A DNA stretch of 4,017 bases from a virus (IMGVR_UViG_2713896779_000018), one strand, 5' to 3'. Counted from the stretch's first letter, positions 513 through 4,017 are shown. Notes: generated from the letters alone by a model not told the origin. Translations and numbers: made by a program.

Positions 513-1028
513 TCACAGCACAATCTGTTTCAGTTTCTGTACCGCTTTCCCCATATCCGCCATAGCATCAACAAACTCATCAAATTTACGACTTGCCATT
601 CCATACGCCTGGAGGATTTCCAGTCTCAGAGGATCCAGTTGCTTTTTAATTTCCGCACGATCATTAAATTTCTTCTCTGCTTCTTCCGCAGCCCTGATCA
701 GCTCCTCAGCATGCCTGCGTAATTCATCCGGAGTAACGGTCTTTTTAATCACAACGGGTTCCTCTGTTTTTACTGGTATTTCACTATTTACTGCCTGATG
801 TCCAAATTTAGGATGATGTAACGTTGTAGTTCTTCCATCATTCGCAACGACCAGAAGTCCACTGTCGCGGATAATGCCAATGAGTATCTCCTTATCCCTT
901 TTATTCAGCAGACTGTACGCCTGCACTTTCTGTGATATCTGGGTCAGTGTTGCGCCTTCCGGCATTCGTTCAACAAAACGTTTAACCCTGGATAAAACTG
1001 GCTGCAGATGGGGTGGTGTAATTCTCAT
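513..1028 (-). CDS. hypothetical phage protein (171 aa; possible winged-helix N-terminus, charged helical C-terminus)
   Basis: Complete ORF from the track, ATG at 1028..1026, TGA at 515..513. A GGGAGG Shine-Dalgarno lies 8 nt upstream of the ATG. The sequence is visibly more AT-rich than its neighbours. C-terminal part is rich in E/K/R/A (AEELIRAAEEAEKKFNDRAEIKKQLDPLRLEIL). No family recognised with confidence. Confidence 0.7.
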   Translation of the reverse strand: MRITPPHLQPVLSRVKRFVERMPEGATLTQISQKVQAYSLLNKRDKEILIGIIRDSGLLVVANDGRTTTLHHPKFGHQAVNSEIPVKTEEPVVIKKTVTPDELRRHAEELIRAAEEAEKKFNDRAEIKKQLDPLRLEILQAYGMASRKFDEFVDAMADMGKAVQKLKQIVL

Positions 1029-1036
1029 GCTCCACG

Positions 1037-1042
1037 CCTCCC
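1037..1042 (-). promoter_or_regulatory. Shine-Dalgarno (GGGAGG on minus strand) for the 513..1028 gene
   Basis: Plus-strand cctccc at 1037..1042 is GGGAGG on the minus strand, 8 nt upstream of ATG 1028..1026, within the 15-nt spacer after the KilA-N stop (TGA 1046..1044). Confidence 0.6.
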
Positions 1043-1043
1043 A

Positions 1044-1838
1044 TCAGTGAACGGTATCGAGCAGCTTTAACAGCTCAGGGAATCGGGATTCGAAGAAATG
1101 CGGCTGCGTCTCGCGCGGATTTGCAGGACTGGTGATGTTCTTGCCGAACATGCAGCCTTTCGCCGTCAGCGACCAGAATTTTTTGATGTTGTTAATCGCG
1201 GTACGGCTGTATCGTTCGCGTTGTTCAACGATCCCCAGCTTCGCCATCTGGTGATATGCCTGATTAGCCGTCAGGCGGATACCATATTGCTTCAGCAGTG
1301 CACTCAGCGACAGCGTGGGGCGACTTGAGCCATCAGGCGCGTCAGCAGGAGCATCAATGGCATAGCGCGGTGCCAGATTCGGTAAGCCAACAGCCTCCTG
1401 GAGTTTCTGACAGGCACCAAGCACAGATGAGTTAGACAGGTTTAACTCCCGACGCATAAAGTCCAGCAGAATCACACCAGCCTGCATCTTGTCAGCAGCC
1501 TGCCCGGATAATTTTTCCGGTGCGCTGGTTACCATGTCGAAAGTACGGATCACCTTCAGATGGAATGACGGGCTGATCCACATTGCATAGGCATACACCA
1601 GTTCCTTACAGACATACGTTCCCCGTTCATTTCCCCCATGAATCACACTCACCGGGTCAACACCCAAATTCTGGGTGTTGGTCAATTCATGAACAAGCTC
1701 AACAGTTTGTTGGCTGGAAAGAAACTTTCCTGGCTCCTTGGTTCTGGCATTTGCACCAGATGCTACTGCTGCGCGATGCAGATCGTTCAGGCTGTAACGC
1801 CCATAAGCATCACGACGAACTTCAATACCATCAATGAC
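1044..1838 (-). CDS. KilA-N domain protein (Roi/antirepressor-like DNA-binding protein), 5' end hidden in the N run
   Basis: The track lists 1044..1685 from a TTG, but hand translation shows the same frame stays open upstream to the N run at 1839: ...VIDGIEVRRDAYGRYSLNDLHRAAVASGANARTKEPGKFLSSQQTVELVHELTNTQNLGVDPVSVIHGGNERGTYVCKELVYAYAMWISPSFHLKVIRTFD... This pattern (small N-terminal beta segment, GxYxLNDLHxAA, a K/R-P-x-x-F-L stretch, then a hydrophobic C-terminal helix ending AMWISPxF) is typical of KilA-N domains. The frame has a stop at 1917..1919 and no start codon between the N run and that stop, so the true start must lie within 1839..1888. Confidence 0.8.
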   Translation of the reverse strand, partial: VIDGIEVRRDAYGRYSLNDLHRAAVASGANARTKEPGKFLSSQQTVELVHELTNTQNLGVDPVSVIHGGNERGTYVCKELVYAYAMWISPSFHLKVIRTFDMVTSAPEKLSGQAADKMQAGVILLDFMRRELNLSNSSVLGACQKLQEAVGLPNLAPRYAIDAPADAPDGSSRPTLSLSALLKQYGIRLTANQAYHQMAKLGIVEQRERYSRTAINNIKKFWSLTAKGCMFGKNITSPANPRETQPHFFESRFPELLKLLDTVH

Positions 1839-2211
1839 NNNNNNNNNNNNNNNNNNNNNNNNNNNNNNNNNNNNNNNNNNNNNNNNNNACCGGTCCCCAC
1901 TCCACCAGCATTCTTTTCACCTGGCTGTCGTCTTCCCACACACCCGCGTGTGTCAGGGCGTCAAACAGTGCCTTGTTATAGTTGTCCAGATCGCGGATCC
2001 TGTTATCAGGAGGAAACAACACGATCTCCACTGAAGCAGGTGCCGACGTTGGTTTTGGCAGACGACGTAACTGCTCAACTATTGCTGCACACGCCGCGCT
2101 CTGAAATTTTCGCCCCGCCGCGCTTATCAGGCTCTTACCAGCAAATGCCCCTTTGTTGGGGTGTCGCCAGTACGTGTTCACGCTGGGCGGGAAAGGCAGG
2201 ATCAGCTTCAT
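1831..2211 (-). CDS. rusA: crossover junction endodeoxyribonuclease RusA (Holliday junction resolvase), 3' portion masked by N
   Basis: ATG at 2211..2209. Translation MKLILPFPPSVNTYWRH...PPDNRIRDLDNYNKALFDALTHAGVWEDDSQVKRMLVEWGP aligns with E. coli RusA (ITLPWPPSNNRYYRH ... [31 protein letters not shown]), including the acidic catalytic residues (DLDN, DD). If the N run is exact length, the frame ends at TGA 1833..1831, giving about 126 aa (RusA is about 120 aa). Confidence 0.85.
   Translation of the reverse strand: MKLILPFPPSVNTYWRHPNKGAFAGKSLISAAGRKFQSAACAAIVEQLRRLPKPTSAPASVEIVLFPPDNRIRDLDNYNKALFDALTHAGVWEDDSQVKRMLVEWGPXXXXXXXXXXXXXXXXXXH
1839..1888. other. run of 50 N (masked or unresolved sequence)
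   Basis: Directly visible. Covers the RusA 3' end and the KilA-N start; reading frames on both sides are consistent with a 50-nt span. Confidence 0.95.
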
Positions 2212-2534
2212 ACTTTCAGGCCTCTCTCATGTAACCAGTGAGTTGCACGCAGCCTTGCGTTTTCCTCACCGGCAAGCAGTGAGCGGATAATCCCGACCGC
2301 TTCGCTGTCGTCGTCCTTCACTGCGGTATGAAGCGTGATCCCCCGGGCCACACCACGCTTTATCGTGATGACGCCTTTTTTCTCCAGTGCGCGAAGATGC
2401 TCCACCGCTGCATTCACTGAACGGTATCCCAGCATGGTTGCCACCTCCTGATTGGTTGGCGGGAAGCCACGTTCTTTCTGATAAGAAATCAGCATATCCA
2501 GCACCTGCTGCTGGCATTGAGTTAACGTCGTCAT
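2208..2534 (-). CDS. LexA N-terminal DNA-binding-domain protein (LexA-like winged HTH, no S24 peptidase domain), 108 aa
   Basis: ATG at 2534..2532, TGA at 2210..2208. LTQCQQQVLDMLISYQKERGFPPTNQEVATMLGYRSVNAAVEHLRALEKKGVITIKRGVARGITL is closely parallel to E. coli LexA residues ~4-68 ([65 protein letters not shown]). The tail VGIIRSLLAGEENARL resembles the LexA hinge and cleavage region (VGRVAAGEPLL), but the protein stops about 20 residues later, so there is no room for the Ser/Lys peptidase domain. ATGA overlaps with both neighbouring genes. Confidence 0.85.
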   Translation of the reverse strand: MTTLTQCQQQVLDMLISYQKERGFPPTNQEVATMLGYRSVNAAVEHLRALEKKGVITIKRGVARGITLHTAVKDDDSEAVGIIRSLLAGEENARLRATHWLHERGLKV

Positions 2535-3184
2535 GCCGCCATCTCCCTGACCAGTTTTTCTGCCTGCTGGCGAACCTGCGCCAGAAAGGCCTCACCACAT
2601 GCCTCAAGTTCATCGCGCCCGATGTAGCTGATTGCCGGTCCCTTCCAGGTCTTGTCGAAAACAGCAATAGCACCAGCGAAGAAAGCGCCTGTCGGTACCT
2701 GCTTCTCGTCTTTCGGGATAAACCAGGCAGGCAGTTCAAAACCAATACGCCCTCGAATAAAAGCAATATGGTCCGCATCTTCCGGCCACCACACTTCGCT
2801 GGTGGCAGCTTTGATCAGGAAAACATAGCGCCCCCCCTTATCACGCATGGCACTGGCATGTTTCATGATGTAACGCATGCCGGTGATGTATTGCCCCTCA
2901 TGCTGACTGGCGCGGCTGTATGGGGGATTACCAAAGGCAGCCCCTTTAAGCTCCGCAAGACGTTCTGACCAGTCATGCGCCAGCGCGTTGTCTTCCGCCG
3001 TGTAATACGCAGCACATTTGGCGTTATCACCGTCAGTGAACAGATCCAGAACAAACGGGCCAAACAGGGTGTTAATTCCCCAGAAAATGTTGTCCGGCGT
3101 GCGCCACTGATCGCCCACTTCCTTCAGTTCATGGGCTGGTTTGTTCCGCAGTTCCACCAGCGCCTGGCAATATTTATTACTCAT
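2531..3184 (-). CDS. phage-type DNA N6-adenine methyltransferase (Dam-like, orphan)
   Basis: ATG at 3184..3182 preceded by GTGGGGG; the track's longer version starts at GTG 3217. Stop TGA 2533..2531. Contains the N6-adenine methyltransferase catalytic motif NPPY (AAFGNPPYS) and an N-proximal DQWRTPDNIF (WxTP) motif characteristic of the phage Dam family. No restriction endonuclease partner is visible in the window. Confidence 0.9.
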   Translation of the reverse strand: MSNKYCQALVELRNKPAHELKEVGDQWRTPDNIFWGINTLFGPFVLDLFTDGDNAKCAAYYTAEDNALAHDWSERLAELKGAAFGNPPYSRASQHEGQYITGMRYIMKHASAMRDKGGRYVFLIKAATSEVWWPEDADHIAFIRGRIGFELPAWFIPKDEKQVPTGAFFAGAIAVFDKTWKGPAISYIGRDELEACGEAFLAQVRQQAEKLVREMAA

Positions 3185-3551
3185 TAAGCCCCCACGAAAT
3201 TCCCTGACAGATACCACTCTTCACCCGATGCAGCGCGCTTGCTGCTTTTCCGTAAGCACNNNNNNNNNNNNNNNNNNNNNNNNNNNNNNNNNNNNNNNNN
3301 NNNNNNNNNCGCACAGGTCTGGTTTCACGAACTGGTTGTGGTTCCGGCTCCTGCGCTCTCTCAGTCAGGCGCGGGAAATGTCTGCGTGTATCTCCTTCAC
3401 AACGGTGAGCCACACGCCCACTCTGACGTAACTTGCTTGCTGACTGCAGAACGCGCTGTCGTGAGTAACCTGCAAAAGCATCCGCAATGTCTCCGGAAGT
3501 ACAGCCCGGATGGGCTTCAATGAATTTCTGAACTTCATTCAAAAGACTCAT
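3177..3551 (-). CDS. hypothetical small phage protein (possible HTH), interrupted by N run
   Basis: ATG at 3551..3549 with AGGGGG Shine-Dalgarno 5 nt upstream; the sequence reads TGATCATG with the upstream gene's stop. N-terminus MSLLNEVQKFIEAHPGCTSGDIADAFAGYSRQRVLQSASKLRQSG. About 80 codons before the N run and 27 after (AYGKAASALHRVKSGICQGISWGLNE*), in the same frame if the run is exactly 50 nt. Stop TAA 3179..3177 overlaps the methyltransferase start by 8 nt. Could be one gene or two. Confidence 0.55.
   Translation of the reverse strand: MSLLNEVQKFIEAHPGCTSGDIADAFAGYSRQRVLQSASKLRQSGRVAHRCEGDTRRHFPRLTERAQEPEPQPVRETRPVXXXXXXXXXXXXXXXXXXAYGKAASALHRVKSGICQGISWGLNE
3260..3309. other. run of 50 N (masked or unresolved sequence)
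   Basis: Directly visible; lies inside the 3177..3551 ORF. Confidence 0.95.
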
Positions 3552-3553
3552 GA

Positions 3554-4017
3554 TCACCCCCTGAATCCTGCCGGGATCTGGCTGTAGTCCACGTTGTCGT
3601 AACTGGCTTTGAAGTACGGGTCCTCGCGTCTGGCTGCAGATACCGCAGGAACTTCCCAGGATTCTTCGAAATGACGATCCGGACCAAAGAACGTGACAGC
3701 CTGTTTCACAAATTGTGTGCCGCTGTTACCCATCGCAGATACCCAGCCCGCGTAGCGTTTCACACCTTCCAGCATGGTTTCGGGTTTTACCCCCTCATTC
3801 AAACGGGCTTTCCAGGCTTTGAAGGCTGCAGATTTTGAATTGCCACCAGCACGTTTGGGATATGCCAGCCATGCCTGCTCAAACTCCGGAGAGTATTCCG
3901 GTCGGTTTGAACGAACTCGCACGGACTCATCAACTGATGCACCAACAGCTATTGGTTCATTGACTGGTTCTTTGACTGGTTCAAAAGAGTGACTGGTTCT
4001 GGGTGAATCTCCTGCAC
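3554..4017 (-). CDS. phage replication protein with DnaT-like (primosomal protein I-like) C-terminal domain; 5' end outside window
   Basis: The track ORF 3554..3922 starts at a GTG, but hand translation shows the frame is open to the window end (...AGDSPRTSHSFEPVKEPVNEPIAVGASVDESVRVRSNRPEYSPEFEQAWLAYPKR...). The C-terminus ...YDNVDYSQIPAGFRG* matches the extreme C-terminus of E. coli DnaT (...VSEPDSQIPPGFRG), and the preceding region shares the spaced aromatic/hydrophobic pattern (F..YP....F...A.W). Stop TGA 3556..3554. Confidence 0.75.
   Translation of the reverse strand, partial: AGDSPRTSHSFEPVKEPVNEPIAVGASVDESVRVRSNRPEYSPEFEQAWLAYPKRAGGNSKSAAFKAWKARLNEGVKPETMLEGVKRYAGWVSAMGNSGTQFVKQAVTFFGPDRHFEESWEVPAVSAARREDPYFKASYDNVDYSQIPAGFRG
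3951..3999. repeat. three exact direct copies of TGACTGGTTC (plus one degenerate copy) inside the replication gene
   Basis: Exact copies at 3961..3970, 3973..3982 and 3990..3999, with a partial copy (ttggttca) at about 3952..3959. Copies 1 and 2 encode the same peptide (EPV) but copy 3 is in a different reading frame. Confidence 0.6.

Follow-up and report, generated by a model that had tools for sequence, protein, structure and literature searches.

What does a short DNA sequence do when it is repeated, in more than one reading frame, inside the gene of a phage replication protein? The question is raised by a viral DNA stretch of 4,017 nucleotides (IMGVR_UViG_2713896779_000018; the whole of it is called the window here), whose minus strand carries, at 3554-4017, the 3′ part of a replication-initiator gene of the SfV orf39 type, coding for the end of a linker and the C-terminal domain (C-domain). 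Within it lie three exact copies of the 10-mer TGACTGGTTC, which an earlier sequence-only reading had taken for possible iterons of a prophage origin. We find that the 10-mers belong to an element that is constrained at the DNA level throughout a family of initiator genes and that stands next to a separate, variable array of dyad-symmetric repeats; most likely, the 10-mer element is a shared working part of the replication origin and not a set of initiator-specific binding sites.

Repeats within a lambda-O-like initiator gene

The three exact copies occupy 3961-3970, 3973-3982 and 3990-3999, their starts lying 12 and 17 bases apart, and a degenerate fourth copy, CTATTGGTTC, lies at 3949-3958, starting 12 bases ahead of the copy at 3961, just as the sequence-only reading had described them. 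In gene order the copy at 3990-3999 comes first and is nearest to the iterons described below, the copy at 3973-3982 follows 17 bases on, that at 3961-3970 another 12 bases on, and the degenerate one (GAACCAATAG on the gene strand) a further 12. The whole conserved element spans 3949-4003 and reads, on the gene strand, CCC AGAACCAGTCAC TCTTTT GAACCAGTCAA A GAACCAGTCAA T GAACCAATAG. A 10-mer found three times within 60 nucleotides was seen in none of 1000 first-order Markov simulations of the window, and one occurring twice in 190 of the 1000; in the genome of SfV (37 kb), the exact 10-mer is confined to these three sites.

The reading frame that runs off the window at 4017 and ends at the stop codon at 3554-3556 reads ...AGDSPRTSHSFEPVKEPVNEPIAVG... 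on the minus strand. In this frame the copies at 3961 and 3973 are both GAA CCA GTC (E-P-V), and the copy at 3990, lying one base out of register, is AGA ACC AGT CAC ((R)-T-S-H), so that translation of the gene bears out the claim that two copies encode EPV and the third is in another frame.

From 3310 to 4017 the window is 99.7% identical to Escherichia coli prophages, including the one at locus L001, its closest relative from E. coli O121, in which the gene occupies 6245-7062 (818 bases, about 354 of them beyond the window). Matches to the gene region were found in 2713 of 5426 complete E. coli genomes, with at least 80% of the query covered in 879. The L001 gene shares 98.8% identity with orf39 of the Shigella phage SfV, where the annotation is 'replication protein', and the same gene is present in mEp460, cdtI, Stx2c phages and Stx2a_WGPS2 (97.7% identity); in ST64B the N-terminal domain (N-domain) is identical. 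Stx2a_WGPS2 is the reference phage of the Eru6 replication type, whose helix-turn-helix (HTH) protein carries PF13730 (PMC8951638). Matches in PHROG were to phrog_270 and phrog_8540, replication initiation (O-like). The N-domain, which falls beyond the window edge, was recognised as PF13730 (HTH_36) in SfV orf39, in distant relatives and in full-length proteins sharing 97-99% identity with the fragment in the window. The L001 copy is annotated as frameshifted at ~6860-6866, where it has a run of six A against seven in SfV, a site in the N-domain coding part and outside the repeats.

An AlphaFold2 (AF2) model of P0001, a full-length relative that is 99% identical and has two iterons, predicts a winged helix at residues 1-88, containing a recognition helix at 51-64 and a beta-hairpin wing, followed by a disordered segment at 90-135 (predicted local distance difference test score, pLDDT, 31-35) and a helical C-domain. 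Iterons and 10-mers both code within the disordered segment of this model, which agrees with the proposal that, in a lambda-O-like initiator gene, the repeats sit where the linker is encoded. The C-domain was modelled with low confidence (pLDDT 56-62), and structure searches with these models returned generic winged-helix matches and a non-significant DnaD-like match only. The label 'DnaT-like', which had been attached to the gene, found no support: neither PF17948 nor DnaT structures were matched. The gene is a lambda-O-like initiator, made up of an HTH_36 winged helix, a disordered linker and a swappable C-domain.

Conservation of the element at the DNA level

Homologues were sampled using patterns from the N-domain only, with no reference to the element, and with one genome per species. 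The resulting 80 loci come from Enterobacterales, Pseudomonas, Aeromonas, Shewanella, Marinomonas, Halomonas relatives, Vibrionaceae, Pasteurellaceae, Cardiobacteriaceae and others, and the 68 unique homologues from this sample served for the codon and information analyses. All 80 have the element in some form, 70 of them with no more than 5 mismatches in 27 positions and the other 10 as variants changed in spacing or sequence, and the information profile gives a family-wide core of CCCAGAAYCAGTMAC-N6-GAAYCAGTCA-NN-GAA. A stricter motif pattern detects at least two clustered copies in 179 of 185 unique genes, the copy number across the family being 2-4 and the frame patterns (1,0), (1,0,0), (0,0), (1,1,0), (1,2) and (2,1). 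The copies corresponding to 3990 and 3973 are universal in the family, and one of the 3961 type passes the motif pattern in 71 of the 179 unique cluster-bearing genes (spacing patterns (17,12) and (17,12,12)).

A sensitive DNA-level search of phage genomes singled out the 37-50 bases with the 10-mers, which are matched at 90-97% identity in Vibrio and Stenotrophomonas phages; no other part of the gene is conserved as well in these phages, and in many of them no other part was matched. Their loci contain, in order, an unrelated C-domain, TGACTGGTTC(A/T)AAAGAGTGACTGGTTCTGG, three to five repeats that differ from phage to phage, and the conserved N-domain. With an exact-pattern scan, the element turned up in at least 120 viral contigs; among the contigs listed it always lies at the junction of the N-domain-iteron part with the C-domain, joined to many iteron types and C-domains. 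Every checkable occurrence in the collections searched is inside a gene of this initiator family, the apparent exceptions being truncated loci or loci with a KLSDNA variant of the N-domain motif.

Several lineages carry the motif at other spacings and in other frames. Three Shewanella loci (L190, L191 and L193) have two copies at a spacing of 15, both read EPV; two Parashewanella loci (L175 and L183) share this spacing, their first copy being degenerate; in three Aliivibrio loci there are three copies, 12 and 14 bases apart, read RTSH, RTSQ and LEPV; and an Avibacterium locus has a spacing of 16 and a second copy read NQS. In Shewanella profunda (L187, gene nucleotides ~355-395), both copies are altered alike to GAATCTATCA, at a spacing of 15, which suggests concerted change or copy correction. 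Distant homologues, with 41-55% identity in the N-domain, keep diverged repeats in the same place: TAACCAGTCA and TAACCAGTAA in mEp044, three copies of AACCATCA in Vibrio phage 1.036.O, and four of GAACC, 11-13 bases apart, in Pseudomonas phage LESphi3. The repeats are thus conserved in the homologous genes of related phages, very distant ones included.

The codons of the element show what is being conserved. In the run of 12 codons that extends from CCC to the GAA behind the variable codon, the commonest residue is always encoded by the same codon at 11 positions across the 68 genes (e.g. AGA in 65/65, AGT in 67/67, TCT in 66/66 and GAA in 66/66), and at the twelfth GTC is used in 61/64. Amino-acid replacements are nevertheless common in the same segment (T/I in 38/30, H/N, F/L/S/P/I and P/S). 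In 44 conserved columns of the N-domain of these genes the commonest codon accounts for only 54%, with two to six synonymous codons in use. Since synonymous sites are invariant while amino acids change, and since lineages with spacings of 15, 16, 14 or 12+14 retain the motif in other reading frames, selection acts on the DNA, as the sequence-only reading had argued from the frame of a single copy. The repeats might instead merely reflect a conserved linker peptide, RTSHSFEPVxEP, which is recognisable in most members; yet it is the amino acids that vary and the synonymous positions that do not, the same DNA is read RTSH, EPV or NQS depending on lineage, and the segment is predicted to be disordered. 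This inverted coding pattern, together with the changes of frame, rules the peptide explanation out for practical purposes, and we give it next to no credence.

Conservation of synonymous sites cannot by itself separate DNA from RNA, and the constraint could instead act on the mRNA, for example at a regulator site for translation or stability of the initiator message or at a site for processing of a primer transcript. Activation of ori-lambda depends on transcription through the origin (PMC3017604), which lends such a constraint some plausibility. Three observations speak against it, however: no Rfam match rose above noise, no single-strand structure was found beyond that of shuffled sequences (z 0.84 and -0.33), and there is no promoter-like site. 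Direct repeats of variable spacing, held in a fixed register with DNA-binding sites, also fit a role of the DNA better, and we regard the mRNA explanation as very improbable.

Other candidate functions were rejected. The absence of folding beyond shuffles and of an Rfam family disposed of a structured single-strand initiation site, a primosome-assembly site and an RNA element; the sole Rfam match, to mir-875, covers the dyad iterons and is noise (E 0.056; 22 bits, where the gathering score is 84). A plus-strand TTGACT was considered as part of a promoter, but no sigma-70-like site came out of the scan, and a Stenotrophomonas phage has ATGACT instead, so that the T is not conserved. Comparison by eye with DnaA boxes, integration host factor (IHF), Fis and sigma-54 sites, Chi and recoding sites gave nothing convincing, the partial matches falling on the variable spacer.

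Variable dyad repeats beside a nearly invariant element

The sequence-only reading had allowed that the array may continue past 4017. No further copies of TGACTGGTTC were found beyond the window edge or elsewhere in the phage, but a different and larger repeat array runs outward from 4003. Its first unit, the dyad-symmetric GTGAATCTCCTGCAC, occupies 4003-4017, and the rest of the array lies outside the window, with the other four 15-mers at L001 6718, 6739, 6760 and 6784 (spacings of 24, 21, 21 and 24). The five copies share the pattern GTGMAnnTnnTGCAC, which in the SfV genome occurs inside orf39 only and whose count there was reached by none of 100 shuffles. Past the iterons, at L001 ~6799-6850, is an AT-richer stretch (GC content 0.40 vs ~0.50). 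The locus therefore has, just past the window edge, an anatomy like that of a lambda-type origin, with five dyad repeats at about two helical turns and an AT-richer stretch; the suggestion that the 10-mers are part of a prophage origin gains from this, while the suggestion that they are its iterons does not.

Two further features of the array were noted. In L001 (6694-6798) the junctions between successive iterons are also palindromic (CACTACCCCCTAGTG), and the array can be read in two registers, the 15-mer given here being a putative binding unit. The number of dyad iterons varies among near-identical genes, from two in a 250-amino-acid form (P0001, found on 64 contigs) to five in the SfV form and seven in L018, and the 10-mer count stays constant while iteron number changes.

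Across the family the dyad repeats fall into nine iteron classes whose arms track the recognition helix of the N-domain. Initiators with the helix ...RSVMN... go with arms GTGCA or GTGAA, those with ...RSVMR... and ...RTAMR... with GTGAC(A), ...SAVR... with GCATA or TGCCA, ...RSTVR... with TAGGC, ...RSTVK... with GGCAG, and ...TTAI... and ...KTAI... with GTGTA or TGTAA. Similarity of iterons, measured on 6-mers, correlates with helix identity (Spearman 0.78), and the partial correlation is 0.69 when the remainder of the N-domain is controlled for, compared with 0.13 the other way round; such values are inflated by the relatedness of the sequences, but the contrast between the two is clear nonetheless. 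Because they covary with the recognition helix, the dyad repeats behave as iterons; they are likely the specificity iterons of these phages and would be bound by the N-domain.

These results bear directly on the first interpretation of the locus, in which the TGACTGGTTC copies are themselves iterons, i.e. specific sites that mark the origin of this phage. They are direct and frame-independent repeats in the linker-coding part of an initiator gene, and since conservation of the N-domain is high (in alignment A1, of 12 diverse representatives, identity to the first sequence is 64-77%), a conserved site for a conserved domain is conceivable. Iterons are replicon-specific, however, and the 10-mer motif is shared by nine iteron classes, the same sequence occurring in phages that differ in both recognition helix and dyad repeats; it is the neighbouring dyad repeats that vary and covary with the helix, and it is they that have the 15-19-bp dyad form and the two-turn period of lambda iterons. 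We thus consider it improbable that the 10-mers are iterons.

A sequence that stays near-identical in hosts ranging from Enterobacterales to Pseudomonas and Stenotrophomonas, beside phage-specific parts that vary, could also be a site for a host protein common to Gammaproteobacteria, be it IHF-, Fis- or DnaA-like or part of the helicase-loading machinery, and plasmid and phage origins often carry host-factor sites beside their iterons. No good DnaA box, IHF or Fis match was seen by eye in the element, though, and the partial IHF- and Fis-like ones use its most variable part, the spacer. In addition, the element was seen only inside this initiator family in the collections searched, and the same genera carry diverged motifs in distant initiators (Pseudomonas in LESphi3, Vibrio in 1.036.O). 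The motif therefore drifts with the lineage of the initiator and not with the host genus, which favours recognition by the initiator over a fixed host factor, and we judge the host-factor explanation unlikely, if less so than iterons.

The place of the element relative to the iterons is fixed. Its direct repeats abut the last iteron in a constant register, ...CACCC|AGAACC, with high information content across the 68 unique genes. The GC content of the element is 0.38-0.41 in loci of middle and high GC and 0.32-0.39 in those of low GC, and in high-GC loci (mean 58.5% GC) it is the least stable 30-bp segment in 16 of 27, when compared within ~400 bp upstream and 300 bp downstream. Two dips in stability flank the iterons, one in the wing-coding stretch and the other at the 10-mer element, and which is the lower depends on the GC content of the host.

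Taken together, the arrangement suggests a role for the 10-mers as a cis-acting element of an origin embedded in a lambda-O-like initiator gene, with a part in duplex opening or helicase entry, a proposal that we put at slightly better than an even chance. Along such a gene the coding sequence of the winged-helix N-domain is followed by the AT-richer stretch and three to seven dyad iterons (two in P0001), and the last iteron by two to four direct copies of GAAYCAGTMA in fixed register and then by the coding sequence of an exchangeable C-domain, which is matched to the downstream helicase or loader gene. The phage-specific iterons would be bound by the recognition helix of the N-domain, allowing initiator dimers to assemble on them; the duplex would then be opened, and a host or phage helicase brought in, at the adjacent conserved repeats, which a portion of the initiator common to the whole family may recognise in double- or single-stranded form. 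More specifically, GAAYCAGTMA could be a sequence-specific site of unwinding and helicase entry that a conserved surface of the initiator reads, perhaps once the DNA is single-stranded, and so a counterpart of DnaA-trios and basal unwinding regions that lies within a coding linker and is common to temperate-phage origins with exchangeable iterons and helicase-recruiting domains; this fuller version is speculative and less likely than not.

Several points weigh against a role in opening or helicase entry. The recognition helix varies among phages, and one and the same helix could hardly recognise variable iterons and an invariant motif alike, so that a second surface must be postulated. At ~40% GC the element is no more than moderately AT-rich; its low stability is not independent evidence, as it follows from the conservation; and in low-GC hosts the wing-coding flank of the iterons is less stable than the element, so that unwinding could take place there instead. 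No orphan element was found outside initiator genes, on plasmids or in any of the loci examined, whereas one would have proved a purely cis-acting role, and no experiment that maps an origin or demonstrates replication or binding for any member of the family was found in the searchable literature.

Exchangeable C-terminal domains and related origins

The C-domains form 11 clusters, each major one of which is combined with several iteron classes; a single cluster may occur with as many as seven classes, and iteron classes are likewise joined to more than one cluster. The gene downstream tracks the C-domain cluster, with a lambda-P family gene (PF06992) following clusters 1 and 2, a DnaB-type helicase gene following cluster 4, an IstB/DnaC-type loader gene following cluster 6 and neither following cluster 0, the class of the window and of SfV. 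The family thus combines PF13730 with C-domains paired with helicases or loaders, as expected of HTH_36, lambda-O-like initiators.

A natural recombinant, P0014 (L212 78-860), joins the N-domain and iterons of Min27 (L209) to the C-domain of SfV (L002). It is identical to Min27 through the first 10-mer, including a CTATCAC variant, and identical to SfV from the spacer onward, which places the crossover inside the element. P0014 is known from a metagenomic contig with a coverage of ~2x, but an assembly chimera is unlikely, because the longest exact run that the parents share there, ~13 bases, is too short. Being shared across the family, the element serves in practice as a crossover point for C-domains. 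The C-domain of L203 (Avibacterium paragallinarum), …THREICGLFQWANQDLFWKTNILSPAKLREKWDQL…, closely resembles the C-terminus of lambda O, …NHRDMCVLFRWACQDNFWSGNVLSPAKLRDKWTQL…, a likeness that links the family to lambda O directly, through domain exchange.

The free combination of C-domain clusters with iteron classes and the crossover in P0014 are also what would be seen if the element had no role in replication and were a linker at a module boundary, kept so that C-domains can be exchanged by homology. Such second-order selection would, however, hardly fix synonymous sites across hosts of 40-60% GC while the coding sequence of the N-domain drifts, and it leaves unexplained the direct repeats, their fixed register, the new spacings and frames, and the diverged repeats of distant homologues. 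We hold an exchange linker of this kind to be quite improbable as the reason for the conservation.

The proposed origin resembles ori-lambda in several respects. Both lie inside the initiator gene, in the segment coding for a flexible interdomain linker; both have dyad-symmetric repeats of 15-19 bp at about two helical turns; and in both the C-domain is matched to a helicase-loader partner, many of the relatives here being followed by a gene of the lambda-P family. The annotated order along gene O is N-domain coding, four 18-bp dyad iterons, AT-rich region and C-domain coding, and the parts follow in the same order here, with the 10-mers holding the position of lambda's AT-rich unwinding region. 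Unlike lambda O, on the other hand, the N-domain is an HTH_36 domain (PF13730) that is not recognisably related by sequence; in place of the AT-rich purine tract of lambda there is a near-invariant, sequence-specific direct repeat of ~40% GC; and the SfV type found in the window is without a loader or helicase gene. The unwinding region of lambda (L211 520-565, corresponding to lambda 39119-39164) itself contains two copies of ACAAAAGA at 18 bases and more copies of AAAAGA, and these short direct repeats sit in the same place relative to the last iteron as the 10-mers.

The 13-mers of oriC, the DnaA-trios and the 13-mers of RK2 oriV are AT-rich and non-coding and have been found experimentally to be bound as single strands by the initiator. 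With these the phage element shares its short direct repeats, set beside the last initiator site in fixed register, its conservation across related replicons in which other parts vary, and, in most high-GC loci, a local minimum of stability; it differs in lying inside a reading frame, in being less AT-rich, and in being known from comparative evidence. With the plasmid iterons of RepA, RepE, pi and TrfA it has in common that direct repeats of variable copy number lie near an initiator gene, but those iterons are replicon-specific and coevolve with their Rep proteins, whereas the 10-mers are common to initiators of different specificity.

The protein family itself has been described before, and includes the HTH proteins of the Eru5, Eru6, Eru8, Eru11 and Eru13 replication types of Shiga toxin (Stx) phages (PMC8951638) as well as DopC and O-like proteins (PMC5509034); that the HTH_36 N-domain goes together with various C-domains, among them DnaT_C and Phg_2220_C, is already on record (PMC8951638, PMC5509034). 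These are the same family as the gene in the window, but both papers deal with the proteins only: a text search of PMC8951638 for 'iteron' or 'repeat' gave nothing, and PMC5509034 reports that no iteron-like sequences were found for dopC. Literature searches with the 10-mer and 11-mer strings returned only unrelated primer lists, and those on SfV orf39, replication modules, Eru types and HTH_36 gave papers on protein families and nothing on the repeats. We thus found no published description of the element in the searchable literature, which leaves most papers in subscription journals uncovered, and it may have been noticed before.

Origins embedded in initiator genes are textbook knowledge for lambda, and for the HTH_36 family our searches found no mapped origin, although its initiators are widespread, occurring in SfV, ST64B, cdtI, mEp460, several Stx-converting phage types and many prophages of Gammaproteobacteria. 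The data point to a three-part model of their origins, in which iterons confer specificity, a repeat element stays invariant and the recruiting domain can be exchanged, and which predicts that a target of 30-40 bases should be essential in cis throughout the family. If the element is the site of opening or loading, it would show that a sequence-specific unwinding element can coexist with a reading frame, and would explain why initiator modules shuffle so freely exactly here. It also offers a compact marker for finding these origins, and a candidate handle for controlling the replication of Stx and serotype-converting phages.

The window as a whole is part of the early region of a lambdoid prophage, and all its genes are on the minus strand. 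At 513-3557, on the minus strand, it carries a typical SfV/CPS-53-like early-region gene set, consisting, going up, of a 171-amino-acid open reading frame and genes for KilA-N, RusA, a LexA-like repressor, a phage N6-adenine methyltransferase and a PerC-like protein (yfdN); no helicase or loader gene follows the initiator gene in this interval. Two runs of exactly 50 N, at 1839-1888 and 3260-3309, break the RusA-like and PerC-like (yfdN) frames and look like masking rather than biology. Finally, the last 76 bases of the initiator gene (window ~3554-3629, L001 6245-6320) are 97-99% identical in SfII, Kati and vB_EcoS-569R4, whose initiator genes are otherwise without a match in the search, which marks a second mosaic junction at the 3′ end of the gene.

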